Origin: Leucoraja ocellata
Lineage: Eukaryota
Reading direction: 5' to 3'
Assembly (NCBI GenBank): GCA_036785375.1
Contig: JAWMAR010000175.1
Span: 2,976,001-3,040,000 of the forward strand
DNA length: 64,000 bases
Position 1 is the stretch's first letter; each line of letters opens with the position of its first letter. Below are positions 525-64,000 of this stretch, one piece after another. A model generated the notes under the pieces. The model had not been told where the DNA came from. It was given only the letters and a program-made list of their open reading frames with translations, and searched no databases. The translations under genes and the position numbers were made by a program.

Positions 525-645
525 AAGAAGGAACTGCAGATTTCTGGTTTAAAAAAAAGGGCACACAATGCTGAGTAACTCGGCAAGTCAGGCAGCATCT
601 CAGGGGACCTGAATAGGTGATGTTTCGGGTCAGGACCCTTCATCA
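525..645 (-). mobile_element. Degenerate Penelope pLTR fragment with hammerhead-like core
   Basis: GAAGGAACTGCAGAT...GCTGAGTAACTC...GGCAGCATCT; minus strand reads TGATGAAGGGTCCTGACCCGAAAC. Confidence 0.65.
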
Positions 646-891
646 ATATGATGTAGGGACCTGAATAGCTATTCCTAGTGTCTGGCAGCATTTCAATCTG
701 TATACCACTTTGGAAAGATGTCCAATAACTTACCCTCAGTTTAAGGTAGAGAGCAGTGATTATAATGCCATAGATAAAGAGAATTCCATCCAGATGTAAC
801 AAAGTTTCGGGTCATTCAGGTCCATAGTGCCAGCATCTGTTAAAGTTGGAAACAAAAAGTCTGGTCAATGACCCATCCAAACAATATCTAA

Positions 892-6352: not shown

Positions 6353-6578
6353 CAACACACAAAATGCTGGAGGAACTCAGCAGGTCAGGCAGCATCTGTG
6401 GAGGGAATGGACAGGCGACGGCTCAGGTTGGGGACCCTCAATCTTACTTCCGCAGTCTGAAGAAGAATGTCAACTTGAAACACCATCTGCCCATTTCCTC
6501 CACAGATGCTGCCTGACCCGCTGAGTTCCTCCGGCACTTTGTGTTCTGTTCAAGATTGCAGCATCTGCAATGTTTTGT
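6353..6578. mobile_element. Degenerate palindromic Penelope-derived insert
   Basis: Inverted arms GCTGGAGGAACTCAGCAGGTCAGGCAGCATCTGTGGAGG / CCTCCACAGATGCTGCCTGACCCGCTGAGTTCCTCC, central AGTCTGAAGAAG. Confidence 0.75.
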
Positions 6579-9845: not shown

Positions 9846-10445
9846 GTGTAGGAAGGAACTGCAGATAGACACAAAATGCTGGAGTAACTCAGCGGGACAG
9901 GCAGCATCTCTGGAGAGAAGGAATGGGTGGCGTTTCGGGTGGAGACCCTTCTTCAGACTGGTTAGGGAAAAGGGAAACGAGAGATATAGACAATGATGTA
10001 GCGAGATAAAGAACAATGAATGAAAGATATGCAAAATATTAACGATGATAAAGGAAACAGGCCATTGTTAGCTGTTTGTTGGGTGATAACGAGAAGCTGG
10101 TGCAACTTGGGTGGGGGAGGGATAGAGAGAGAGGGAATGCCGGGGCTACCTGAAGTGAGGGAAATCAATATTCATACCACTGGGCTGTAAGCTGCCCAAG
10201 CGAAATATGAGATGTTGTTCCTCCAATTTGCGTTTAGCCTCACTCTGACAATGGAGGAGATGGAGGACAGAAAGGTCTGTGTAGGAATGGGAAGGAGAAT
10301 TAAAGTGTCTGGCAACCGGGAGATCAGGTTGGTTCAGGCGGGCTGAGCGAAGGTGTTCAGCGAAACGATCGCCCAGTCTACGTTTGGTCTCGCCGATGTA
10401 TACGAGTCCACATCTTGAACAATGGATGCAGTAGATGAGGTTGGA
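9846..10445 (-). mobile_element. Penelope-like element 3' part (GIY-YIG endonuclease, pLTR, hammerhead-like core)
   Basis: NLIYCIHCSRCGLVYIGETKRRLGDRFAEH...EEQHLI...GMNIDF; downstream CAGTCTGAAGAAGGGTCTCCACCCGAAAC. Confidence 0.9.
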
Positions 10446-11362
10446 GGAGATGGTCCAAGTAAATTTGAGTGCAGGATGAAAATTGGTGGTGAAGTTGATG
10501 AAGTCCATGAGTTCTGCCTGGGTGCAGGAGGTACCACCAATGCAGTCATCAATGTAACAGAGATGGAGTTCGGGGATAGGGTCAGCGTACACCTGGAACA
10601 GGGATTGGTGACTGCATCGGTGGTACCTCCTGCACCCAGGCAGAACTCATGGACTTCATCAAGTTCACCACCAATTTTCATCCTGCACTCAAATTTACTT
10701 GGACCATCTCCGACACCTCCCTCCCCTTTCTTGATCTCAGTCTCCATCACAAGAAATAGACTATTGACTGACGTCTATTACAAGTCCACTTCCCACCCTG
10801 CTTCCTGCACAGACTATTCCCTACTTCCAATTCCTCCATCTACGCTGCATCTGCGCCCAAGATAAGATGTTCCATACTGGAACATCTGAGATGTCCTCAA
10901 TCTTTAGGAAATGGGGGTTCCCCTCTCCCATCATAGATGAGGCCCTCACTCGTGTCTCCTCGGTACCCCGCAGTTCCGCCCTTGCTCCCCTTCCCCCCAG
11001 TCAGAGTCCCCCTTGTCCTTACCTTCCACCCCATCAGCGTCTCATGCAACACATAATACTCCGAAAATTCTGCCACCTCCAACAGAATCCCACCACGAGC
11101 CACAGCTTCCAATCTCCACCCCTTTCCACCTTCCGCAGAGACCGTTCCCTCCACAACTCCCTGGTTAACACATCCCTTCCCACCCAAACCACCCCCTCCC
11201 CAGGTACCTCCCCCTGCAACCGCAGAAGATGCAACACCTATCGCTAGACCTCCTCCCTCGACTCTGTCCAGGGACCCCGACAGTCCTTTCAGGTTAGGCA
11301 GAGGTTCACTTGCACCTCCTCCAACCTCATCTACTGTATCCGTTGTTCAAGATGTGGACTTC
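10441..11362 (+). mobile_element. Penelope-like RT/thumb fragment with an inverted duplicated 5' segment
   Basis: CYIDDCIG...FHPALKFTW on minus (10441-10590) mirrored on plus (10604-10710); continues TDVYYK...PCNRRRCNT...SSNLIYC. Confidence 0.85.
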
Positions 11363-11364
11363 TT

Positions 11365-11697
11365 ACACAAGGAACTACAGATCCTGGTTTACACCAAAGA
11401 TAGACACAAAATGCTGGAGTAACTCAGCGGGACAGGCAGCATCTCTGGAGAGAAGGAATGGGTGACGTTTCAGGTCGAGACCCTTCTTCAGACTGAGTCT
11501 GGGGAAAGGGAGACATTAGAGATATGGAATGGTAAGGTGTGAAAACACAGAACAAACCAAACCATCAGGAAATGCAAAACGGTTCATTGTTAGCAGAAGG
11601 TGGCATACAATCTGTGAAATGTGATCAGGACAGTGAAACTAGTCAGAGAACAAGGATGGGGGAGGGATGGAGAGAGAGGGAAGGCAAGGGTTACTTG
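11365..11697 (-). mobile_element. Penelope 3' UTR/pLTR fragment (family A)
   Basis: GACACAAAATGCTGGAGTAACTCAGCGGGACAGGCAGCATCTCTGG...GTCGAGACCCTTCTTCAGACTG. Confidence 0.8.
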
Positions 11698-16717: not shown

Positions 16718-17415
16718 TGTTTAAGAAGGAACTGCAGATGCTGGAAAAGGTAGACAAAATTGCTGGAGAAACTCAGCGGGTGCAGCAGCATCTATGGAGC
16801 GAAGGAAATAGGCGACGTTTCGGGTCGAAACCCTTCTCCAGTTGTTTTTCCACCTTTTTTCCCTCTGACAGTAGAGGCAATGAACATTGATTTCTTCAAT
16901 GTCAAGTAAGACCCCCCCCCCCCCCATGCCTACCCCCTTGTCGTTCCTCTGTAGCCCACCCTGGTGTGCACACATTTGCCCACCATCTCCCACCTCCCCA
17001 GTCGCCCTTCTCCTTTCTCCTTCTCCATACGCTCATCTTCCATCCTCTAGTCCCACATTCCTCTTTTATTTCCACCCATAATCCCTCCCTCCAGCTTCAC
17101 ATTGCACTCCTCCTTTCCTCTACTGATCTGACACCTTTTTGTCTCCTTTTCACCTCCAGCCTTTGTCACTTCACCCATTTACCAACTGCCACTCTCGTCT
17201 GTACCCACCTATCACTTGCTAGGCTTTGTCCTATGCCCACATCTCCTTTCCAGCTTTCTTTCCCCTTACTCCATTAGTCTGAAGAGGGGGTCCCAACCCG
17301 ACAAACCCATTGTGTATCCATTGGGCCGACCCCTCCACAGATGCTGCCTGACCTGCTGGGATCATCCAACACTATGTGTTTGGCCTAGGTTCCAGCATTT
17401 GCAGTTCCTCGTTTC
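16718..17415. mobile_element. Composite Penelope fragments: family B arm (minus) and older 3' end (plus)
   Basis: GTTTAAGAAGGAACTGCAG arm 16718-16838; ATGAACATTGATTTC ORF end, pyrimidine-rich UTR, AGTCTGAAGAGGGG core. Confidence 0.7.
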
Positions 17416-18492: not shown

Positions 18493-18562
18493 TCGGGCCC
18501 TTGCCTGTGAGAAATGTAACATGATCGTTCTGCGATACTGACGAACTAATACTTGTCTCATT

Positions 18563-18784
18563 GTTTAAGAAGGAACTGCAGATGCTGGAGAATCGAAGGT
18601 TACACAAAAAAGCTGGAGAAACTCAGCGGGTGCAGCAGCATCTATGGAGCGAAGGAAATAGGCAACGTTTCGGGCCGAAACGTTTCGGGTCTGAAGAAGG
18701 GTTTCGGCCCGAAACGTTGCCTATTTCCTTCGCTCCATAGATGCTGCTGCACCCGCTGAGTTTCTCCAGCTTTTTTGTGTAACC
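18563..18784. mobile_element. Palindromic Penelope-derived insert with intact hammerhead core
   Basis: CTGAAGAAGGGTTTCGGCCCGAAACGTT at 18691-18718; direct repeat CTTGTCTCATTGT at 18552-18564 and 18784-18796. Confidence 0.88.
18691..18718 (+). ncRNA. Minimal type-I hammerhead ribozyme core (putative)
   Basis: CUGANGA, stem II GGGU-UUCG-GCCC, GAAAC, palindromic ACGU, GUU site; activity untested. Confidence 0.65.
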
Positions 18785-19627
18785 TTGTCTCATTGTCCTG
18801 TCTGCAGTGTATGAACATTGAAGTTAGTCGTGTATATCTGGAACTGTTTCCTGAACCGTAGGATATTGAGTGTTGTTCGGCAGTCTTTTGTCTTGGATTC
18901 CACAAGGTCATGTTATTTGTCAGCCTTCACCCATCTCTGGACATGTTCTATATCAGTTTCACATATCACTTTCTGTGGCTGTGGCCCGGTAAGTTTCATT
19001 AAGAATCATACCCTCATTCTGTGCCTGTTTGTGGAAAGATGATACCTGTTCCACATATGCCGTATATATGAATTCAAAAAATATTTTGACATTGTAAGGT
19101 TAGCACAATGAGGAACAGCAGTCATTTTTTCCAATTGATGCTATTAGTTTCTTCAATAACAAGCTGCAGTGGGGAACAAACCGGGTTATTATTTAAATGT
19201 AAATGGGTTAGCTCAAAAAGTTTGCCTCCAAACATCTCTTAACCCAAACCAACACTGGACCTATAGGATGGCACGATGGTACAAAGTCCCGCTAGGGCCT
19301 TTAGTTGTTTAGACTCCATCCAGGATATGACCTGGAACATTGAACATGCCTAAGGAGAGGTGTAGACTTTTAATAATATGACAAGTGGAATCCAAAAAAC
19401 AAGACTGATCATTGCAGAACAAGCAATCCATTCCTCTACAGTCTAGGAAACTGTTCCAGATAAACACCACCAACTTCTATGTATATATGGCATTTAATGA
19501 CATTTGGACAGGTACATGGATGTTAAACACAGTTAGGTGGGTGGGTCTATCTTGGATGGGACATCTGGCTTTGTATGGATGAGTTGGGCCTTCAATGCTT
19601 AGCTTTACTTATCATGTGCCAAACTAA

Positions 19628-19925
19628 TGGCCCTGTTCCACTGTGCGAGCTAATTTAAGAGCTCTCCCGAGTTTAAAAAAAAATCAAACAAGTGGAAGCA
19701 CGTAGAAATGTACGTAGCGGGTACGTCGGAGCTTGGGACGTCTCGTAGCGGCTCGTAACGCTAACGGCAGGTACTAGGGAAATGCGGTAAGCTTTTTCAA
19801 CATGTTGAAAAATGTCCACGAGAGCCCCGAGTACCGACGAGCGGCCATTACCGTAATTCTCCGAGTTCGAATCAGAGGAAACTCGGGAGAACTCTTGACT
19901 TAACTCGTACAGTGGGACAGGCCCA
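19628..19925. mobile_element. Harbinger-type MITE
   Basis: TGGCCCTGTTCCACTGT ... ACAGTGGGACAGGCCCA with longer imperfect inverted arms; flanks TAA/TAG. Confidence 0.85.
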
Positions 19926-20335
19926 TAGGTCGGTGGTGGTCTATCCTATAATATCAAAGCTTTAGTATCAGATAGTTGTGGACATCTCACCACATATATT
20001 CCTTCTTGCTGCCACAACAAGCCACAGCCACGCTTGTATTTCCTTCTTCCCATCCTCTTCACATCATTTGTGAACCCGATTTCCACAAGAAACAAACTTT
20101 GTTCCTCTTCCCTGATCTCGCTGGTCTCAACTTGACCAACGCAGACCTGGCCACACCTGGCTGACAACCAATGTAGCCATCCATCACAAAACGTGGTTGG
20201 ATCAATGTGACCTGGTTCATTTCTCCTTTTGATCAGATTAGCACACGCGACATCAATTTGAAGAACAGGGAGATCTTAACAAAAACTAAAATAATTTTTC
20301 AGAGATTGAAGAAGGGTGCCGACCCAACCCACCTG

Positions 20336-26819: not shown

Positions 26820-27512
26820 TGTCGGGAGTGTACTTTGGTGCGAGGTGCTGCATTTTGGAAAGCAAACAAGGGCACGACTGTCACAGCGAATGTTAGGGAT
26901 CTGGAGAGTGTTGCAGAGCAGACGGATCGGGCAGGACAAGTGGCGTCATAACTAGATCGGGCGGTGAGGGCAGCTTTTGATCACAGTGCCCTTTGCCAGT
27001 CGAGTCGCTGAGTACAGAAGTTGGGAGATTGTCCAAGCTGCGGACGACTCTGCGCCCGGCCTATTGTGTCCAGGTGTGGTCACCCTCCTGCTTGAATGTG
27101 TGGGGGGGGGGGGGGGGGAAGATTCACGAGGGCGTGGCCTGGACTCCGGGGCCTAGGCTGGAGGGAGCAGCACAGTAGATTAGGCCTCTAACCCTTGGAG
27201 CACAGGAGGATGAGGGGTGATGCAATAGAGGTGTACAAAATCATGAGGGGTAAAGGCACAGTCTTTTACCTAGAATAGAGGAATCAAGGGCTAGAGGTTT
27301 AAGGTGAGAGAAGAAAGATTTAATAGAAACCATTTTTCACTCAGAGGGTGGTGGGTGTGTGGAACGAGCTGCCAGAGGAGGTAGTTGAGGCAACATTTAA
27401 AAATCATTTGGACAGACACAAGGATGTGGGCCCACGGCATTAGAAGGGGTATTTGGTCTGCATGGACAAGTCAGGCTGAAGGGCCTGTTTCCGCGCGAGC
27501 TGACGCTATGAC
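26820..27512 (+). mobile_element. Old CR1-type LINE fragment
   Basis: CEVLHFGK, YCVQVWSP and FFTQRVVGVWNELP remnants. Confidence 0.7.
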
Positions 27513-29043
27513 TATAACAAGCGACATTTTATGCTTACCTGAAAGGACGGTGTCACTGCATGTGGAGTGAAGTGTGCACCAGCTGTAAACTAGCTCTCGC
27601 TCACACAAAATACCCTTCCCCTGTTAACAAGTACAGTACCATACTCCAGTCCTCAACACACTTCTGAAGGAATACATCAACTGCGTCTCATTCACGAGTC
27701 TGAAGTCAGTAGACAAGAGGCAAATATTTTTGCAGAATGGAAATTTTACCAAAGACTGAGCCCATTTTCTGACACCACCCACCATGTGGTTTCCTGTTAA
27801 CCCAGCTCTCTAAACTTCTTTAAAACAACATTATTCCTCCTACACTTCACATTTTCTCTGATCGGCAGACCATTGACATAACGTACATGCCTCACATCCC
27901 AGCAGCAGAAGTTTCCACAGCAGCTTCACAATCACTAAGTGCCGTTTGTTAGTTGAGAACCATCTTGGAACAACTGAACACGCACCACTTGATTGATTGT
28001 AAATTGGTTACAAAACATCCAGTGATCCTCCCATGAAGTGTGTACCTGCTAATCCTGCAGGCGGAATCCTTCCTGGTGTTTATGAGAGTGAGGGCATCGA
28101 GGAAGAGCAGGAGCGAGCAGCCTGCCTCTGCGGTAATCCTGCGGCAGGTGCAATGGGGAGTCAGCTGGCCCCGGAAGTTCTCTTCACACGTACCTTCAAA
28201 GCAGAGTTCTCCATCTGTTTGCTCTCTCGGTTCGCCAATACTTTTTAAAACAATATATATTGGCGGTACAAAGTATCAGGGACTCGGAAAAAAATTCCCA
28301 GGGTAGATGGAGGACGTTTAGCCTGTCCCCTCTGTGCCAGTCATCCTTCCAGTGCTCACTCGTGTCCTTATCACCAACTCAAACAATGAGCTCCAGCCTT
28401 TATCTCGCTCTCAACATAGAACAGTACAGCACAGGAACAGGCCCTTCAGCCCATAATGTTTGTGCTGAACATGATGCCAAGTTAAATTGATCTCATCTGC
28501 CTGTAAATGATCCAGACCCCTCTATTCCTTTACTTCCATGTACCTATCTAAAAGCATCTTAAACTATCTGCTTCCACCACCACCATGCATTCCTGGCCTC
28601 CACTGCACGGTGTAAAAAAAAATTCCACCCTGGAAAACGGTTCTGACTATCTACGCCTCTGGTTTGAATATCGGCCCCATAGCAGAAGCGTCCACATCGT
28701 GGGGCTGCAAACTGAGCTAATTCTACTACCACCATCTACTGCAACAAGTGATGGCTACCACAGGACAGACGATGACAGCGAGGTCAACATTTGATACATG
28801 GAAGATGGACACGAAAATATAATTTGAATCTCTTCATCAACACCCTTGATCTTGCACCACAGACTTGAGTTTAGTACTATTGTGGTTACTGGGTATTACT
28901 GTTACTATAATTATCGATTATTATATGTATCTATGATTTATCGCATGAACAAGCTTGTAAAGCTGCAGCAAGTATTAGTTTCATTGCCTGTTGCCGGTAC
29001 ATATGACAACTCTTGACTCTCTCTGAACTGGGTCATTCGATGA

Positions 29044-29420
29044 AGTCAAGTCACGTGTATTCGTCACATACACATACGAGATGTGCAGTTAAATGAAAAG
29101 TGGCAATGCTCGCGGATTGTGCAAAAAACAAACAAAACTACAAACAAAATATTCACATATTACATATTTGTGGGAGGGGGGGGGGGGGGAAGAAAGGGAA
29201 AAAAAACAGCAATTTTAAAAAGACACCACACAACAGTAGAGTGGTTCAGTAAGGTTAGTCCCTGGAGAGATAGCCGTTTACAGTCCGAATGGCCTCTGGG
29301 AAGAAACTCCTTCTCATCCTCTCCGTTCTCACAGCATGGCAGCGGAGGCGTTTGCCTGACTGTAGCAGCTGGAACAGTCCGTTGCTGGGGTGGAAGGGGT
29401 CTCTCATGATCTTGTTAGCT
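29044..29420 (-). mobile_element. Rex1-type LINE 3' fragment
   Basis: (GACTT)n tail; CRENGEDEKEFLPRGH-type frameshifted remnant; same UTR at 31571-31783. Confidence 0.65.
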
Positions 29421-29471
29421 CTGGAGTCACTTGCAACAGCCTTATGGTTCCATCAACTATTATTCTTTGCT

Positions 29472-30495
29472 GTAGGAAGGAACTGCAGATGGACCTGCTG
29501 TTTAAACCAAAGATAGACACAAAATGCTGGAGTAACTCAGCGGGACAGGCAGCATCTCTGGAGAGAAGGAATGGGCGACGTTTCGGGTCGAGACCCTTCT
29601 TCAGACTGGTTAGGGAAAAGTGAAACGAGAGATATAGTTGGTGATGTGGAGAGATAAGGAACAATGAATGAAAGATATGCAAAAAAGTAATGATGATAAA
29701 GGAAACAGGCCATTGTTAGCTGTTTGTTGGGTGATAACAAGAAGCTGGTGCGACTTGGGTGGGGGAGGGATGGAGAGAGAGGGAATGCCGGGGCTACCTG
29801 AAGTGAGGGAAATCAATATTCATACCACTGGGCTGTAAGCTGCCCAAGTGAAATATGAGATGCTGTTCCTCCAATTTGCGTTTAGCCTCACTCTGACAAT
29901 GGAGGAGACAGAGGACAGAAAGGTCTGTGTCAGAATGGAAAGGAGAATTAAAGTGTCTGGCAACCGGGAGATCAGGTTGGTTCAGGCGGGCTGAGTGAAG
30001 GTGTTCCGTGAAACGATCGCCCAGTCTGCGTTTGGTCTCGCTGATGTACAAGAGTTCACATCTTGAACAATGGATACAGTAGATGAGGTGCAAGTGAAGC
30101 TCTGCCTAACCTGAAAGGACTGTCGGGGTCCCTGGACGAGGGAAGAGTTACAGCGACAGGTGTTGCATCTTCTGCGGTTGCAGTGGAAGGTACCTGGGGA
30201 GTGGTTTGGGTGGGTAGGGACGAGTTAACCAGGGAGTTGCGGAGGGAATGGTCTCTGCGGAAGGTGGAAAGGGGTGGAGATGGTGGGATCCCGTTGGAGG
30301 TGGAGAAAATGTTGGAGGATTATGTGTCGTATGCGATGGCTGATGGGGTGGAGAGGAAGGACTAGGGGGACTCTGTCTCTGTTGCGATTGGGGGGAGGGG
30401 GAGCAAGGCGGAGCTGCGAGACACTGAGGAGACACGAGTGAGGGTCTCATCTATGATGGGACAGCTGGGGGTTCCCTAAAGACTGAGAACATCCC
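29472..30495 (-). mobile_element. Penelope-like element 3' part (family A)
   Basis: LIYCIHCSRCELLYISETKRRLGDRFTEH (GIY-YIG); intact core CTGAAGAAGGGTCTCGACCCGAAACGTC on minus at ~29577-29604. Confidence 0.9.
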
Positions 30496-30629
30496 TGGCA
30501 TGGAACCCTTTGCTTGCTGTATTAGGAGGATTCCTGACCCAAAATGTTGCCTGTCCATTCCTTCCACAGATACTGCCTGACCCCATGGATTACTCCAGCA
30601 CTTTCTGTTTTGCTTCATGTTATGTCTTC

Positions 30630-30895
30630 CCCATCTCACCTTAAACCCGTGCCCTATAGTTCTTGATTCCCTTACCATGGGTAAAGGTCTTTATTCATTC
30701 ACCCGATCTATTCCCCTCATGATTTTATTCACCTTCATAAGATCACCCCTCATCCTCCTGAGCTCCAAGGAATAAAGTCCCATGGCCTGCCCAACCTCTC
30801 CCTGTAGCTCAGCCCCTCAAGTCTTGGCAACATCCCCGTAAATCTTCTCTGCACTCTTTCCATCTTAACGACATGCTTCCTGAAGAAGGGTGACC
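30630..30895 (-). mobile_element. CR1-type LINE fragment
   Basis: WSPFFRKHVVKMERVQRRFTGMLPRLEGLSYRERL. Confidence 0.8.
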
Positions 30896-30923
30896 AATTT
30901 GTGGCATGTAGAATGATTCTTAA

Positions 30924-31243
30924 TAGCCAGTTCCCACTGTACGAGTTCATTCCAAGAGCTCTCCCAAATTTGGCCTGATTCGAAATCGGAGATTTACGGT
31001 AATGGCCGCTCGTTAGTACTCGGGGGCTCTCGTGGACATTTTTCAACATGTTGCAAAATCTTCACGAGTCTTCCCGTGCTTACCTGCCGTTAGCGAGTCT
31101 TCCCGAGTACCTGCCGTTAACGCTAAGAGACGTCCCCGAGCTCCGACGTACCCGCTACGTACATTCTCCGTGCTTGCCACGAGTTTGATTTTTTTTAAAC
31201 TCGGGAGAGCACTTGAATGAACGCGTACCGTGGGACAGGGCTT
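30924..31243. mobile_element. Harbinger-type MITE
   Basis: TIR ...TCCCACTGTACG / CGTACCGTGGGACAGGGCTT; flanks TAA/TAA; reverse orientation of 19628. Confidence 0.85.
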
Positions 31244-32113: not shown

Positions 32114-32364
32114 ACCTAGTCCACGGGTTTAGAAGACCCTAAACGAGTTGAAAAAAATGTCACGGCCGTGTTGACATGCCGAAGTAAAAGACCTCCTACG
32201 ACCATGTCTACGACCTCCACCTTGACCAACCTAAGTCTTCCACACCTAAGACCAACTACGACGAGCTACGAGTGGAAAATGATCACATGATAAAATGATG
32301 TCATATTTGCATTTTTTTCCTCAGGCCAGTTACTGACCTACGACTGCCTACAACTACCATCACC

Positions 32365-32452
32365 ACCTACCTACGACCTACCTACGACCTACCTACGACC
32401 TACCTACGACATACCTACGACCTACCTACGACCTACCTACGACCGACCTACG
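32365..32452. repeat. 11-bp minisatellite (ACCTACCTACG)x8
   Basis: Direct reading; two units carry single substitutions. Confidence 0.9.
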
Positions 32453-33239
32453 TGTAAAAAGTATCATTTTTTTCCATGCCAAACTTTTTTTCACTCATGG
32501 ACATTTTTCCATCAGGCTGGAAAAAATGACGCGACCTACTTGAGGCCACGGGTACGTGGAGACCACTCTCGAGCACGAGGAAGAGTTATGAAGACCTCCT
32601 ACGACCTCTTGGCGACCATGCTGCGAGTACGAGTCAAGGGCAAACTCGGCAGAGGTCGCCAATTAGGTCATGAAAGTGGGACACCGGCTTTACTAATGCT
32701 GCTTTGTTAAATGTTATTTGGAGGTAAGAAGTACATTGATAAACTCACAATCTACGATTACACTGAGCAACTTTTTCCGATAGCCCCATTTTACACGTGA
32801 CGTCCATGTAAACATTGCGGGAATGATGCAGTCATTTTGACATTTGTTTCTAACCATTAGTTTTCTGATGAGTTCAGCAGATTCCGTGACATCAGCAGTA
32901 GAGGCAGTGGAAAGCTGGCTAACATTGTTGGTCCACAGGCACAGCGGCTCCTGTGGTGAGCTCATGGCATTGAGCTGAGACCATGCCCATCATCACTGCC
33001 ACACTGCCTCTAGTTATGGCTGGGCATTCACTTCAACTAAAGCTTCTTAGAGTCATGGACATATGCAGCACAGCCCACCTTGTCCATCCAACACGTTGGA
33101 ACATTGCGCTGGTCCAATTTGTCACATTTGGCTCATGGACCTCTAGACCCTCCATCCATATACCTGTCCCAACATCTTCTGTAAATGTTAAATATAGGCT
33201 TCTGCATTGTTCATTATGGCAACGGCAATTAAATAAACT

Positions 33240-34519: not shown

Positions 34520-35100
34520 GGTATAGAGTTATACAGCACGGAAAGAGGCCCTTCGGCCCAACTCGCCCCATCTATTCTCCTCATGATTTTATGACAGATC
34601 GTTCCATAGATTCACTGCCCTCTAAGTGAAAAGTTTCCCCTCAGGTTTGTACTAAATCTTGTCCCTCCCACTTTAAACCTATTCCTGGTTCTTGACTCCC
34701 CTACTCCGTGTTAAACATCACATACATTAACCCTATCTATTCCCCTCATGATCTGATACATCTCTACAAGATCACCCCTTCAGCCTCCTGCACTCCAAGG
34801 AATAGTGTCCTAGTCTGCCCCAACCTCTCCTTGTAGCCCAGCCCCTCAAGTCCTGGCAACATCCTTGAAAATCTTCTCTGCGCTTTTTCCAACTTAATGA
34901 CATCCTTCCGACAACAGAGTGAGCAAAACAGATGACAATATGTCTGAAGAAGGGTTTCGGCCCGAAACGTTGCCTATTTCCTTCGCTCCATAGATGCTGC
35001 TGCTGCACCCGCTGAGTTTCTCCAGCATTTTTGTGTACCGACAATATGCTGCATGTGGCCTTACTAATGACTTGTAAAACCGTGACATAACAACCCAACC
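34520..35100 (-). mobile_element. CR1-type LINE fragment interrupted by Penelope insert
   Basis: FYKSLVRPHAAYC split at 34943-35039; LGHYSLECRRLKG. Confidence 0.75.
34943..35039 (+). mobile_element. 97-bp single-arm Penelope-derived insert starting at the hammerhead core
   Basis: TCTGAAGAAGGGTTTCGGCCCGAAACGTT...GTGTACC; 9-bp TSD GACAATATG at 34934-34942 and 35040-35048. Confidence 0.88.
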
Positions 35101-36920: not shown

Positions 36921-37486
36921 GTTTAAGAAGGAACTGCAGATGCTGGAAAATCGAAGGTAGATAAAAATGCTGGAGAAACTCAGCGGGTGCAGCAGCATCT
37001 ATGGAGCGAAGGAAATAGGCAACGTTTCGGGCCGAAACCCAAAGGGTTTCGGCCCGAAACGTTGCCTATTTCCTTGTGTAAAATCATCCACATATTTTAT
37101 TAACGTACTTTCTAAGGGTATGCCTTCCAAATCTGCCTTTAATATCTGATTGAAGACATGGGGTGAGTGTTTGAATCCCTGCGGCATCCTAGTATAGGTG
37201 TATTGAGTACCTCTACAGGTAAAACCAAACAAATACTGACCTTGCTCTGCTAAGGGTACAGTGAAGAATGCGTAGGGTGGGGGGGGGGGGGGGGAGCGGG
37301 AGGAAGAAAGGAAGAGGAGCCAGAGGGTTGAGGGAGAGCTGACCCACCCTACATCAGTCTGAGGAAGGGTTTCAGCCCAAAACGTTGCCTATTTCCTTCC
37401 CTCCATAGATTCTGCTGCACCCGCTGAGTTTCTCCAGCATTTTTATCTACCTTCGATTTTCCAGCATCTGCAGTTCCTTCTTAAAC
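36921..37486. mobile_element. Composite Penelope family B insert enclosing a foreign fragment
   Basis: Outer ends GTTTAAGAAGGAAC ... GTTCCTTCTTAAAC inverted; several internal orientation switches. Confidence 0.85.
37081..37272 (-). pseudogene. pol: Orphan endogenous-retrovirus reverse-transcriptase core fragment
   Basis: AFFTVPLAEQGQYLFGFTCRGTQYTYTRMPQGFKHSPHVFNQILKADLEGIPLESTLIKYVDD: AFF, PQG..SP and YVDD motifs with retroviral spacing. Confidence 0.88.
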
Positions 37487-42017: not shown

Positions 42018-42760
42018 CAAGGAGGACTCTCTCGAACTTCTACAGGTGCACAGTAGAGAACATGCTGACCGGTTGCATCGTGGCTTGGTTCGGCAACTTG
42101 AGCGCCCTGGAGAGGAAGAGACTGCAAAAAGTTGTACACACTGCCTAGTCCATCATCGGCTCTGACCTCCCTACCATCGAGGGGATCTATCACAGTCGCT
42201 GCCTCAAAAAGGCTGGCAGCATCATCAAGGACCCACACCATCCTGGCCACACACTCATCTCTCCGCTGCCATCGGGTAGAAAGTACAGGAGCCTGAAATC
42301 TGCAACATCCAGGTTCAGGAATAGCTACTTCCCCACAGCCATCAGACTATTAAACACTACTTCAAACAAACTCTGAACTATAACAACCTACTGCAATTTA
42401 TCTTCAAGAAGGAACTGCAGATGCTGCAAAATCGAAAAATGCTGGATGGAAGAAGGGTTTCGGTCCGAAACGTTGCCTATTTCCTTCGCTCCATAGATGC
42501 TGCCTCACCCACTGAGTTTCTCCAGCATTTTTGTCTACCTTCGATTTTCCAGCATCTGCAGTTCCTTCTTAAACTTTTAGTCTACCTTGCACTCTATCTG
42601 TTTATTTATGTGTGTGTTTATATAATATCTATGGTTATATGGACACACTGATCTGTTCTGTATTCATGCCTACAATATCCTGTTGTGCTGCAGCATGCAA
42701 GAATTTTGTTGTCCTATCTGGGACACATTACAATAAACTCTCTTGACTTGACTTGACTTG
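42018..42760 (+). mobile_element. Rex1-type LINE 3' fragment with nested Penelope family B insert (42405-42573)
   Basis: FYRCTVENMLTGCIVAWFGN...IIKDPHHPGH..LPSGR; (TTGAC)n tail. Confidence 0.8.
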
Positions 42761-45046: not shown

Positions 45047-46277
45047 GGGAAGAAACCGCCCCTGAATCTGGAGATGTGCGTTTTCTTGCCGGATGGGAGA
45101 GGGGAGAAGAGGGAGTGGCCGGGGTGCAACACATCTTTAATTATGCTGCTGGCCTTGTCGAGGCAGCGTGAGGTTTACATGGCTCTATAAAAGGGTTGGT
45201 CTGGGCTGCGTCTACATTTCCCTGATCTCTGATCTCTCCCTCTGTCTCTGCACTCAGCACCAAGTCCAGGGGCATTCCTGGTCACCTTATTTGTATCGAC
45301 CAGCCATAGGTTGAACATTGAGAGTGACCACAACATTGGCAACAAACCTTTAACCTTCACTGAAAAGGTATTCTGTTTTAATACTTAACTAATACTAGTA
45401 TTTATATTGTGTAATTGTATTTAACTAAATTTATAATTAGAGCAAGATAAACCAATATCCAACTCATTACATGAGATCTGTCGATTACAAATAAATAAAT
45501 TAAAGACTTTAATTTTTTTTTAGGATTCCGCATTTTGAAGGAAATAAAAGTCTATTAATTTATTTGTTTTTAAACTCTTTTCTTCCCCATTGGGCAGAGA
45601 ATACAAAGATTTGAACGCACGTATCACGAGACTCAGGAAATGATTGTTCCCTGCTGTTATTACAATATTGAATGGTCCTCCCATAAGCTAGGGTGTAGTC
45701 CCGATCTTCCAATCTACCTCAATGCACACCTTGCACTTTTTCTCTGGAACTGAATGCTATAATGCTGAAAGACTATATTCTGCACTCTGGTATGTTTCTC
45801 TTAACACTGCCTCCTTCCTATCAATATCCTATAAAATGTCAACTAATGCATAATAAAGTTTGCAAAAGCTTGTTGAAACAAACTTTCAGATCCTGCAGTC
45901 AAATGAAAGAAACAGCCAAATGAGAAGCATCCTAATCATTTTAATCCTAAGAAAATTGGAGTGTGTGTGTGTTTTGTGCAGCTCCTACAGCAGCCAACAT
46001 AATTGCAACAAGTTAACAAAAGGAACATTTAAATTAAGTTTTCGAAACATTTCTAAAGTTTGAAGGTTTTGGCAAATTGTAAAGGCATTGTTCTCGAAAC
46101 ACAGACTTCAAACAGAATTACTCAGTGGGTCAGGCAGCATCTCTGGAGGAAAAGGGGTGACGTTTGGGGTCGGGACTAAATTTAAGGAGGGTCCCTTTCC
46201 TTCTCTCCAGAGATGCTGCCTGGCCCGCTGAGTTACTCCAGCATTTTGTGTCTATCCTGGTTTTACAGAGATGTATA

Positions 46278-46662: not shown

Positions 46663-47685
46663 TATACTTGACTGGCATCACCTGAATAAAGATGAAGAAT
46701 GTTTTTAAGTTCTGACAAGTGGGACAACCACCGATAGGTGGCAGAGAGTCACACTGGGAAATCCGTGGGATGGGAGGGGTGGCAAGCTGCACATGGAAAG
46801 ATGCTTCACTGGGCTGTCATAGACTGTATATGAGTCACAAATGAAATTAAGATCATGTTCCTACCTACAGGTTTTGGTGTTCCCCCAACAACACACACAA
46901 GAAAGTTTCCAAAGTGCAGCAAAAATAGAAATCAACATGAAATTTATCAGCTGGTCTGGCAATAGTCAAATGTTACAGAGAGAGGGCAGGAGAACGGGGT
47001 TGAGAGAGATCAGTCATGATCAAATGGCGGGTTAGTCTCGATGGGCCGAACAGCCTAATTCTACTCCTATGACTTATGAAGATGAACATAGAACAGTACG
47101 GCACAATAACAGCCCACAATGTCCATGCTGAACATGAAGCCAAGATTAACTCTTGTTTGCCTGCGTGTGGTTCAAATCCCCCCATCCCCTGCATGTCCAT
47201 GTGCCTATCCAAAAGCCTCTTAGACACCTCTATGGTATCTGCCTCCACCACCACCCCCAGCAGCACGTTCCAGGCACCCACCGCTCTCTGTGTAAAAAAC
47301 TTGCCCCCCATATCTCCTTTAGACTTTGCCCCTCTCACCTGAAAACTGTACCCTCTAGTTCAGGACTATGCCCTGAAGAAAGGTCTCGACCCAAAATGTC
47401 GCCAATTCCTTCTGTCCAGAGATGCTGCCCGACCCGCTGAGTTACTCCAGCTTTTTGTGCCTATCTTCCCTCTAGTTTATGATTTTCCCACCCTGGGAAA
47501 AAAGCTCCGACTTTCCATCCTATCAATGCATCTCACAATTTTACAAACTTCTCTCAGGTCTCCCTGGTGTTCCAGGGAAAAACAACCTCTCTCTGTAGCC
47601 AAGACCTGCTCATCGCAGCTTTTCTTTGGAAAGGGTTGGAAATGTACAAGATCTTGAGAACGGGGCTGATGAGCCTCCTCCTGTA

Positions 47686-48408: not shown

Positions 48409-48816
48409 AATAAAACGTTGCAGTCTGCCACAAAACTATTATCTGCTCACATTTCTAACAACTAACTCGGCCATTCTTGCGAGTCACACTCCAAAATGTG
48501 ACCATTGCACTCCAATGAGATTACAGGATTAAGATGTTTTTTTCTTGAGGCTTACATGAATTAATACAAAGGTAGGCACAAAATGCTGGAGTAACTCAGC
48601 GGGTGAGGCAGCATCTCTGGAGAGAAGGAATGGGCGATGTTCGCCCATTCCTTCTCTCCAGAGATGCTGCCTCACCCGCTGAGTTACTCCAGCATTTTGT
48701 GTCTACCTACGATTTAAACCAGCATCTGCAGTTCTTTCTTACACCTGAATGAATGCGTGCCTACCATACGTAATGTACCTTCCATTCTTGAGCCACGTGG
48801 CTTCTGAGGCCTTCGT
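48409..48816 (+). repeat. Source copy of a local duplication (contains palindromic Penelope insert at ~48569-48743)
   Basis: Near-identical to 50224-50537. Confidence 0.9.
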
Positions 48817-50019: not shown

Positions 50020-50792
50020 GTTTATCCCTGGAGGGAGACCGCTTTTCAGGGCTCTCGCAACGGTGACTTCTCCCGCCCGAGTTGCGGGGTTGAAGAGCTC
50101 CTGGAGCGGGGCCTTCATCACTGCCCCGCGCGGCTTGGAATGGCCGCGGGACTCTGCGAGCGCACGCCGGGGGCTCTGACACCAAGACCCGGTGTGCGAC
50201 CTTGCATCACCCGGCGTGGCTTTAATAAAACGTTGTAGTCTGCCACAAAACTATTATCTGCTCACATTTCTAACAACTAACTCAGCCATTCTTGCGAGTC
50301 CCACTCCAAAATGTGACCATTGCACTCCAATGACAAAGGTTTACATGAATTAATACAAAGGTAGGCACAAAATGCTGGAGTAACTCAGCGGGTGAGGCAG
50401 CATCTCTGGAGAGAAGGAATGGGCGATGTTCGTTTTAAACCAGCATCTGCAGTTCTTTCTTACACATGAATGAATGCATGCCTACCATACGTAATGTACC
50501 TTCCATTCTTGAGCCACGTGGCTTCTGAGGCCTTCGTGGCTTTAATGGCCGCGGGACAATCGCCATCGCCAGCCGGGGCTTTGACTTTGACTCTGACATG
50601 GGGGGGGGAGAGTGCAGTGGAGAGATAAGTTTATTTGGCCTTCCATCACAGCGATGTGATGGATGTTTATGTAAATTATGTTGTGTCTTGGGTCTATGTG
50701 TTTGTAATGTATGGCTGCAGAAACGACATTTCGTTTGGACCTCAAGGGGTCCAAATGACAATTAAATGTATCTTGTATCTTGTATCTTGTAT
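50020..50792 (+). mobile_element. GC-rich retroposon 3' part interrupted by duplicated local DNA
   Basis: GC-rich repeats TGGCCGCGGGAC, CCGGGG-CTYTGAC; tail (TATCTTG)n. Confidence 0.6.
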
Positions 50793-53983: not shown

Positions 53984-54086
53984 GTAGACAAAAGTGCTGG
54001 AGAAACTCAGCGGGTGCGGCAGCATCTATGGAGCAAAGGAAATAGGCAACGTTTCGGGCCGAAACCCTTCTTCGAAACTATTCTTC
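53984..54086 (-). mobile_element. Single-arm Penelope family B insert
   Basis: 10-bp TSD AGAATAGTAT at 53974-53983 and 54087-54096. Confidence 0.85.
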
Positions 54087-56520: not shown

Positions 56521-57354
56521 GAAGTGAAGTCCAATGAGTACAGACGCATTTAAATGGCTAAACTATTCATTGTTCCTTTCAGAACTGCTGTGTTAGCCAG
56601 TGGGAGCCAGTGAGAGCTTCAGCCTTGCTGTTGTGAAACACCGATATCACATTGCGTAGAACTGGCCAACAGCAGATTGAAACATCACATCTGACCATTG
56701 TTCAGAAGGTAATACCAGAGGTACTTGCTCATTACATCAGAGGTACCAGTTCAGAGAAGGACACTAAATGCTGGAGTAACTCAGCGGGTCAGGCAGCTTC
56801 TCTGGAGGACATGGATAGATCACGTTTCAGTTCGGGACTCTTCTTCAGGCCCACATCCAAGAGCAACTCTATCTGATGAAGGGTCCCGACCAAAAATGTC
56901 ATCTACCAATATTCCCCAGAGATGGTGCCTGACCTGGTGAGTTACTCCAGCATTTTGGGTCTTTTTTTTTTTAAAAGCAGCTCCTGCTGTTCCTTGCTTC
57001 CACATTTCAACTGTTCCAATGTTCTATAAGTGGATATACTGGCTTGATATCAGAGATATTGGTGGGTGATATTCTTCGGTGTAAACCAGAATCAGCAGTT
57101 CCTTCCGACAAAGATATTGGTTCCACATTTACTGGTTCAATGTTATTTTACTTTCACCATTATGCTACATTAGGCGATATTACATCAGGGTTTTACATTC
57201 AGACAGGAGTGGAGCACGGCTCTGCTCGCTGACGTTGAAGCGAGCAGTGCTGGCGACCAGCGCATTCAATCACTCATCCACACGCAACTAGACATCTTTA
57301 AATACTTCTTTGCAATCAAACAGCATAGTCTTCAGACAAAGGTGATTTCACGAC

Positions 57355-63239: not shown

Positions 63240-64000
63240 AAGGTAGACACAAAATGTTGCAGTAACTCAGCCGGGACAGGCAGCATCTCTGGAGAGAAGG
63301 AATGGGTGACGTTTTAAATCGAGACCCTTCTTCAGACTAGTTAGGGATAAGGGAAACGAGAGATATAGACGACGAATCGCCCCGACGCGGGGGCTTCCAT
63401 CGTTGGCTGCGGGATCTTTGATCACCCCGACTGCAGATGGTTCGACTGACCCGACCGCGGGAGAATAAAGAGAGAGAAGTTGGACTTTTATTGCCGTCCA
63501 TCACAGTGAGGAACGTGGGGAATCCACTGTGGTGGATGTTTATGTTAACTTGTATGTAGTTGTATGTCTTGTTGCTGTTTTTTAAGTATGGCTGCATGGT
63601 AAATTGAATCTCACTGTACCTTAATTACACGTGACAATGAACTGACTTTAAAACCTTGATTCCTGGATGTGGAGAGATAAAGAACAATGAATGAAAGATA
63701 TGCAAAAAAGTAATGATGATAAAGGAAACAGGCCATTGGTAGCTGTTTGTTGGGTGATAACAAGAAGCTGGTGCGACTTGGGTGGGGGAGGGATAGAGAG
63801 AGAGGGAATGCCGGGGCTACCTGAAGTCAGGGAAATCAATATTCATACCACTGGGCTGTAAGCTGCCCAAGTGAAATATAAGATGCTGTACCTCCAATTA
63901 GCGTTTAGCCTCACTCTGACAATGGAGGAGACAGAGGACAGAAAGGTCTGTGTAGGAATGGGAAGGAGAATTAAAGTGTCTGGCAACCGGGAGATCAGGT
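63240..64000 (-). mobile_element. Penelope-like element 3' part (family A), interrupted by GC-rich retroposon at 63375-63661
   Basis: Near-identical to 9846-10330 and 29510-29980. Confidence 0.88.

Follow-up and report, generated by a model that had tools for sequence, protein, structure and literature searches.

Copies of a short Penelope-like end module, probably of Neptune type and opening with a minimal hammerhead motif, in a 64-kb window of Leucoraja ocellata

The stretch of DNA analyzed in this study (the window, 64 kb) carries many copies of a short repeat, which are very probably retrotransposed end-module copies of Neptune-type Penelope-like elements (PLEs) that open with the known minimal hammerhead ribozyme (min-HHR). 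Given the neutral decay described below, the genomic copies are therefore read as fossils and not as a set of host cleavage sites. An HMM built from 14 window copies recovered the ~125-nt module as 48 fragments, 23 on the plus and 25 on the minus strand, covering 7.4% of the window. Much of the core was retained in 26 of these fragments, and it was fully intact in four (11491-, 18691+, 29604-, and 34944+), two on each strand. The initial annotation had counted about 20 motifs, which stands as a number of relics but not as a number of intact ribozymes. Its letters and coordinates for the two family B cores (18691-18718 and 34944-34971, both plus strand) and for the family A core (29604-29577, minus strand) matched the sequence exactly, and the intact core at 11491 was absent from its list. 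The coordinates of the features are collected in Table 1.

The strict min-HHR descriptor, comprising the core, a 4-bp stem II, a paired 15.2-16.2, and UH, matched the window four times, compared with one match each in 3 of 150 dinucleotide shuffles (mean 0.02); the four matches are copies of one repeat and thus non-independent events. In contrast, the Rfam covariance-model scan gave no hammerhead, either at the gathering score over the whole window or at E<=10 around 29604 and 18691, and the Rfam miRNA-model matches at 18691 merely mirror the hairpin at this locus. Other hammerhead families and the U3-A8 variant were not found in the 64-kb window. The lack of an Rfam match and of covariation, together with the fact that a single ancestral event is being counted, would suit a chance match within a repeat; however, the shuffle expectation per window and the position of the motif at the known PLE hammerhead site make this explanation extremely improbable. 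The CUGAUGA variants that had been listed were partly confirmed: the copy at 56873 (+) does read CUGAUGA, the one at 646 (-) reads UUGAUGA, and both are broken.

Table 1. Positions of hammerhead cores, element parts, and insertion features in the window.
Feature	Position	Strand	Remarks
Family B min-HHR core, C3 to U17, intact	18691-18718	+	Pairs from G8 onward with inverted arm
Family A min-HHR core, C3 to C17, intact	29577-29604	-	Predicted cut between 29577 and 29576
Solo family B insertion	34943-35039	+	Intact core 34944-34971; starts 1 base before C3
Fourth intact core, A subfamily	11464-11491	-	
CUGAUGA variant, broken	56873-56900	+	G12>A, C15.2>U; arm of a palindrome
UUGAUGA variant, broken	619-646	-	C3>U, G16.2>A
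Rest of module past cut site	29478-29576	-	Conserved segment, short 3' end, tail
Invariant segment, module +44 to +83 after C3	e.g. 29522-29561	-	
Family A pLTR, ORF stop to core	29605-29794	-	Pyrimidine-rich; CAG just before U2.1
Frameshifted ORF 3' end	29795-30510	-	CX4CxxC linker, then GIY-YIG endonuclease
Second family A unit	9929-10441	-	GIY-YIG end, pLTR, core with U16.1>C
Third family A unit	63308-64000	-	pLTR broken by ~300-nt unrelated insert; core G12>A
Family D pLTR behind another GIY-YIG-like ORF end (by eye)	16879-17310	+	Degenerate core at 17279
Head-to-head palindromic insertion	18565-18783	.	Minus arm 18686-18566 with ~30-nt tail; plus arm 18688-18783 without
13-bp target-site duplication, left copy	18552-18564	+	Right copy 18784-18796; 3 bases overlap element end

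The two families recognized in the initial annotation proved too few: four subfamilies (A-D) were assigned by eye, with at least two dissimilar upstream pLTRs. Family B is the youngest, its copies being ~91-100% alike, and no ORF adjoining it was found in the window. To compare core and flank, 47 copies were each set against their own subfamily consensus, with 4 letters cut from each end, misaligned stretches masked in five copies, and the duplicate at 50430 excluded (50346-50430 is identical to 48557-48641 including the flank, a local duplication of one arm, and was left uncounted). Counting all changes, 21/235 core and 190/2510 flank positions differed from the consensus (p=0.44), and the figures for non-CpG changes were 9/201 and 155/2304 (p=0.30), a trend toward a slightly more conserved core at small n. 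The core is thus no more conserved than the flanking pLTR sequence, one of the two outcomes that the initial annotation had jointly set against its own proposal. Catalytic G12 was altered in 12/34 copies, 10 of them by G>A, mostly as CpG decay. After insertion, therefore, the copies decay neutrally and fastest at CpG, which hits the catalytic G12. All of these statistics are drawn from one 64-kb window.

The family consensuses keep the catalytic core CUGANGA / GAAA / UH, bar G12 in family C. The segment from +48 to +83 after C3 is invariant across subfamilies in 30/36 columns, and the core in 5/6 scorable columns. The wider invariant segment (+44 to +83) is likely a protein-binding or RT-start signal and contains an 8-mer with complements at two sites further downstream, each preceding one of the two 3' ends of the module; a pattern of the conserved downstream segment gave 0 loci in metagenome contigs. 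Because frame-changing indels and stops separate the families, the module looks non-coding.

The three cores at 9956, 29604, and 63335 each follow a pyrimidine-rich pLTR, which itself follows the stop of a GIY-YIG ORF. Family A had been placed directly downstream of this ORF; it does follow it, but with a gap of ~190 nt past the stop (29604 and 9956). The copy at 17279 is preceded by an unlike pLTR. In the second family A unit, GIY-YIG scored 22.5 bits against Pfam PF01541 (E 1.5e-4, cut-off 22.6). Relatives of the endonuclease made up 30 of 193 candidates, and the best of them (66-79% identity) belong to skate, whale shark, and manta ray, which points to an elasmobranch-like fish as host. The C-x4-C-x2-C linker occurred at two loci here and in 3/4 of the relatives fetched. 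A CX2-5CxxC linker before GIY-YIG is described for the Neptune and Nematis clades (PMC8557442). Neptune is preferred over Nematis because only Neptune and Poseidon are named for vertebrate PLEs in the available portion of bioRxiv 10.64898/2026.07.22.740005. Truncation or frameshift affects every piece of the element ORF in the window, and the RT is never intact. A rearranged family A insertion (10149-11360) consists of an inverted RT and linker piece joined to an endonuclease end, and includes a 108-bp inverted repeat at 10446-10711.

The identification in the initial annotation of a PLE minimal type-I hammerhead with a palindromic ACGU stem III fits the published architecture (PMC4209133), and all four intact copies match the four hallmarks given there. 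The type-I core, the base after A9, G10.1-C11.1, and a palindromic 15.2-16.2 without loop 3 are shared with those min-HHRs, as are the pLTR location, the many solo copies, and the opposite-strand pairs (PMC4209133). The extra base between A9 and 10.1 was A in 96% of 26 copies, the 10.1-11.1 pair was G-C in 16/23 and G-U in 5/23, and the palindromic 15.2-16.2 was ACGU in all four family consensuses. The stems are shorter here: stem II has 4 bp compared with 7-8 bp in Schistosoma, and stem I has 2 bp, compared with 4-5 bp in Schistosoma and 2 bp in D. virilis (PMC4209133). This 2-bp stem I was present in 3/4 intact copies, and the 4 bp at 18691 arose only through junction sequence.

What had been described as preserved stem II pairing amounts to a one-sided change from family A to B (U-A to U-G), which lends no covariation support. 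Among the 23 of 48 copies aligned, 87% of the stem II cells paired, which was better than slid controls but not better than shuffles. For stems I and II together, 253/500 shuffles equaled the percentage paired and 198/500 equaled the covariation score, and RNAalifold favored a competing helix. In a nearest-neighbour model without tertiary terms, the predicted probability of stem II was <=0.02 in native context, and the dimer target lay at -0.9 to -16.5 kcal/mol, 16-25 kcal/mol above the best dimer fold (-23.5 to -32.3 kcal/mol). A predicted "off-switch" hairpin formed by the core and the bases past the cut site was paired in 91% of cells, with 35/500 shuffles reaching its covariation score; it was rejected as a selected feature because 4-48% of 300 shuffled 3' segments fold as well, so that it does not clearly outperform them.

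It could also be that the core is vestigial even in master elements, or is kept as a promoter or protein-binding element, and never cleaves. A stem I of 2 bp instead of the 4-5 bp typical of min-HHRs, the GUU and U-G closing pair in the youngest family, the equal invariance of the downstream segment and the core, and the normal insertion of core mutants of PAc, the Poseidon PLE of Anolis carolinensis (PMC11167929), are all consistent with this. However, the catalytic letters, the post-A9 base, G10.1-C11.1, and ACGU are kept together across subfamilies, helix I of D. virilis also has 2 bp (PMC4209133), and an inverted joint at 1.1/1.2 in relatives could mark cleaved templates; a core that never cleaves is thus rather unlikely. 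By analogy with PAc, the master ribozyme is probably protein-assisted.

The insertions themselves carry the marks of endonuclease-bearing (EN+) PLEs, namely an inverted 5' copy, a one-sided tail, and a target duplication. At the 18691 locus, 91-bp arms (18596-18686 and 18696-18786) are 98% complementary and are predicted to form a 91-bp hairpin of -187.9 kcal/mol (z -24), in line with the earlier caveat that palindromic copies may fold into long dsRNA. A tandem re-copied 9-mer at the palindrome center (18660-18690) suggests junction slippage, and this 9-mer creates the chance 4-bp stem I. A second arm, inverted and tail-less, was frequent and gave hairpins: in 12 head-to-head pairs, the tail was present in one arm in nine, in neither arm in three, and in both arms in none; outside these pairs, 42403-42573 carries tail sequence at both sides. 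The module has two 3' ends ~30 nt apart, ~90-95 and ~120-125 nt past C3. Unrelated spacers of ~7-19 nt occur at 5' junctions or between arms (6439-6453, 46177-46191, 47361-47372, 54077-54083, and 56852-56870) and are possibly untemplated or repair-derived.

Target duplications of 9, 10, 10, and 11 bp were found at 34944, 47373, 54075, and 61722, the first at 34934-34942 and 35040-35048 around the solo insertion; the search covered 21 solo copies or arms plus 12 inverted structures, the majority of which yielded no match or short or misplaced ones. The solo insertion presumably lies within a CR1-like fragment. Published PLE insertions share the inverted, 5'-truncated head-to-head copy, the one-sided tail, target duplications of 7-13 bp, and the CX2-5CxxC linker, whereas most insertions here are only 100-220 nt, unlike the published ones (PMC8557442, PMC3846280).

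The 5' ends of the copies cluster at the edge of the core. Local alignment of 47 copies gave 42 ends after exclusion of five upstream of -4, and 16/42 occupied the eight positions between -4 and +3 relative to C3 (p=5e-5, with a flat distribution as the null), with palindrome arms counted as if independent, which they are not. When two copies running further upstream were removed, 14/40 remained (p=4e-4). The cut site +-2 held only 6/42 ends (p=0.13); by eye, half of the six continue upstream and are alignment artefacts. The boundary is fixed by the target duplications at 34944 and 61722. Some 5' "ends" in families C and D may reflect family divergence, because their upstream pLTR is mostly unknown. 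Because whole cores were inserted and the 5' ends cluster at the core edge and not at the cut site, the template RNA was uncleaved, and it probably begins at (C)AGT just before the core. This (C)AGT matches both the vertebrate initiator consensus and that of a 3' splice site.

Four sequencing runs of related organisms, with a best word share of 0.52, were aligned to family A. These runs show the same boundary: one bin upstream of the core, depth was ~24-fold lower than in the core bin, both in the raw-read RNA run (an unstranded, fragmented polyA library) and in the best contig run. In the RNA run, the matches listed include loose ends at 29607 (758 reads) and at 29608 (1592 reads). Because the 29608 consensus resembles the pLTR of another family, family divergence accounts for part of this signal. 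A hint of cap copying comes from the 29607 consensus, which begins with G on the element strand in otherwise AT-rich flanks, at an agreement of only 0.35. Read starts and ends formed no peak at the cut site in the polyA run, a type of library that shows such ends poorly, and no weight is given to this result. For 27500-31000, the search for RNA data sets containing the region listed none, which has no bearing on expression. Among the 15 of 679 joints listed, 6/7 inverted joints fell on 29606-29608, one inverted joint started at position 1.1/1.2 (12 contigs, 13 reads), and 4/5 back-jumps started at 29605-29608, as expected of ~97-nt tandem units. Joints from 29605-29608 to 29510-29513 (9-21 contigs per joint) indicate head-to-tail ~97-nt module tandems in a relative, which are candidates for retrozyme-like, dimer-competent arrays.

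A start of transcription at (C)AGT is the leading explanation of the boundary, though it falls a little short of being probable. The boundary could instead be a 3' splice site, as in the Penelope of Drosophila virilis, with splicing supplying a new 5' strand for stem I and the RT stopping or switching at the acceptor. A pyrimidine tract and YAG stand directly before U2.1 in every long copy, the D. virilis intron runs up to the 5' edge of helix I (PMC4209133), positions 1.3-1.4 are conserved without an upstream partner, and GGG(T/C) before the core in three copies would extend stem I. Nevertheless, the short copies have no common first exon upstream, no splice joint was present among the 15 of 679 joints listed, the best family A donor (CAG/GTAG at the ORF stop, by eye) regenerates the same CAG and a 2-bp stem I, and AG is kept by most inverted joints, which leaves a splice site unlikely. 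Other causes, including RT stalling and family divergence, are slightly better candidates and still doubtful.

We propose, tentatively, that in elasmobranch Neptune PLEs the hammerhead comes first in the transcript, which would start at (C)AGT, 3 bases before C3, so that the copies would be complete cDNAs and the ribozyme a protein-gated switch. If this is true, the ~100-125-nt copies are cDNAs of capped, uncleaved RNA, running from an internal RT start to the cap; the ribozyme with its 2-bp stem I is a protein-gated switch that clips off the ~30 nt at the capped start; and the insertion fossils preserve the site of transcription initiation, both RT starts, and rare cleaved templates. Thousands of short copies per genome offer a read-out of where the template RNA and the RT start and whether the template was cut or uncut, and the 5'-edge clustering makes this directly testable in existing shark and ray assemblies. 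Such clustering was not found in the literature searched, most subscription papers lying outside its scope.

For the end-module reading as a whole, the mechanism may be pictured as follows. Master elements retain the hammerhead core, as its conservation across the four subfamily consensuses shows. Pairing through ACGU would allow this core to be active only in dimeric form, and its 2-bp stem I would probably also require the element's protein, as PAc suggests. The RT would start inside the RNA, again by analogy with PAc, at one of two sites ~30 nt apart; the inserted whole cores show that the RNA it copies is uncut. It would usually halt at the (C)AGT where the 5' ends cluster, and the end of the RNA itself, not quite probable in its own right, is the most likely reason. 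A second arm, inverted and tail-less, is often added, giving hairpins, and the inserted copies then decay neutrally.

PAc (Frangieh et al. 2024, PMC11167929) is one of the closest systems for comparison: it inserts uncleaved RNA, and cutting by its hammerhead requires the protein. The hammerhead near the element end, uncleaved RNA as template, two RT start sites, and a tail ~110-120 nt past stem II are shared with the copies described here (PMC11167929). No PAc reads ended at the cut site, and 5'-end clustering at the core edge is unreported in the available portion of that source (PMC11167929). The two also differ, since the PAc ORF starts at stem II whereas the module here looks non-coding (PMC11167929), and the linker here is of Neptune type whereas PAc is a Poseidon element.

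According to the initial annotation, about 20 motifs would seed any transcript through the region with potential cleavage sites on both strands. For host transcripts this was not supported, as only four cores are intact, the core shows no excess conservation, and the copy at 18691 is held in a hairpin. That many copies self-cleave as dimers in host transcripts, on both strands, and thereby shape RNA through the region is very unlikely. Four intact cores, two on each strand, are compatible with it; the CD3-zeta-like exon at ~735-836 (-) suggests a possibly intronic window; polyA reads of one relative contain the module in abundance; and hybrid sites are possible in principle, with five enzyme halves and 18 substrate halves. 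However, the nearest same-strand enzyme and substrate halves are 945, 970, and 1535 nt apart and their stem I would stay short, and same-strand intact cores are 16 and 18 kb apart. Moreover, 44/48 fragments are broken or partial, stem I has 2 bp in 3/4 intact copies, the modeled stem II probability is as low as given above with the dimer target far above the best fold, and the 18691 core would be locked in the -187.9 kcal/mol hairpin. Published min-HHRs cut weakly, dimers included (PMC4209133); dimer cleavage is credited to Lunse et al., as cited in PMC6765202. Because only 4/48 cores are whole and decay is neutral, the copies are unlikely to cut host RNA.

PLE minimal hammerheads are already published for fish, amphibians, and reptiles, and the present copies are neutral relics of them. 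Cervera and De la Pena (2014, PMC4209133) list fishes, coelacanth, Xenopus, and reptiles among the hosts of min-HHR PLEs. No cartilaginous fish is named in the available portion of PMC4209133, and shark and skate gave 0 matches in one of its supplements. Our literature search found no paper joining hammerhead, Penelope, shark, and Neptune. The role of PLE hammerheads is an open question (PMC8557442). Non-LTR retrozymes, which are derived from the PLE pLTR and carry a type-I hammerhead, are reported in one chondrichthyan (bioRxiv 10.64898/2026.07.22.740005). Those retrozymes are head-to-tail tandems, in contrast to the window, where no retrozyme-type tandem units with intact hammerheads were found.

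Further features were observed in the window. An exon at 735-836 (-) with good AG/GT borders encodes a CD3-zeta-like transmembrane segment (Pfam TCR_zetazeta, E 5e-9), with CD3 zeta as its best PDB matches; a one-base frame shift right after the PKLCYI motif marks an assembly error or a pseudogene. The first exon of this gene was not found in the window; going by the layout of the human gene, intron 1 may make up all of the remaining sequence. A retroviral-type RT fragment (37076-37280, minus strand; Pfam RVT_1, E 3e-10) lies between two family B insertions beside a poly-G run, and was rejected as a PLE RT since it is not PLE-like. Finally, a MITE-like family of ~300-440 nt with 47-48-bp terminal inverted repeats is present at 894-1335, 19627-19926, 30932-31241, and 32356-32683.
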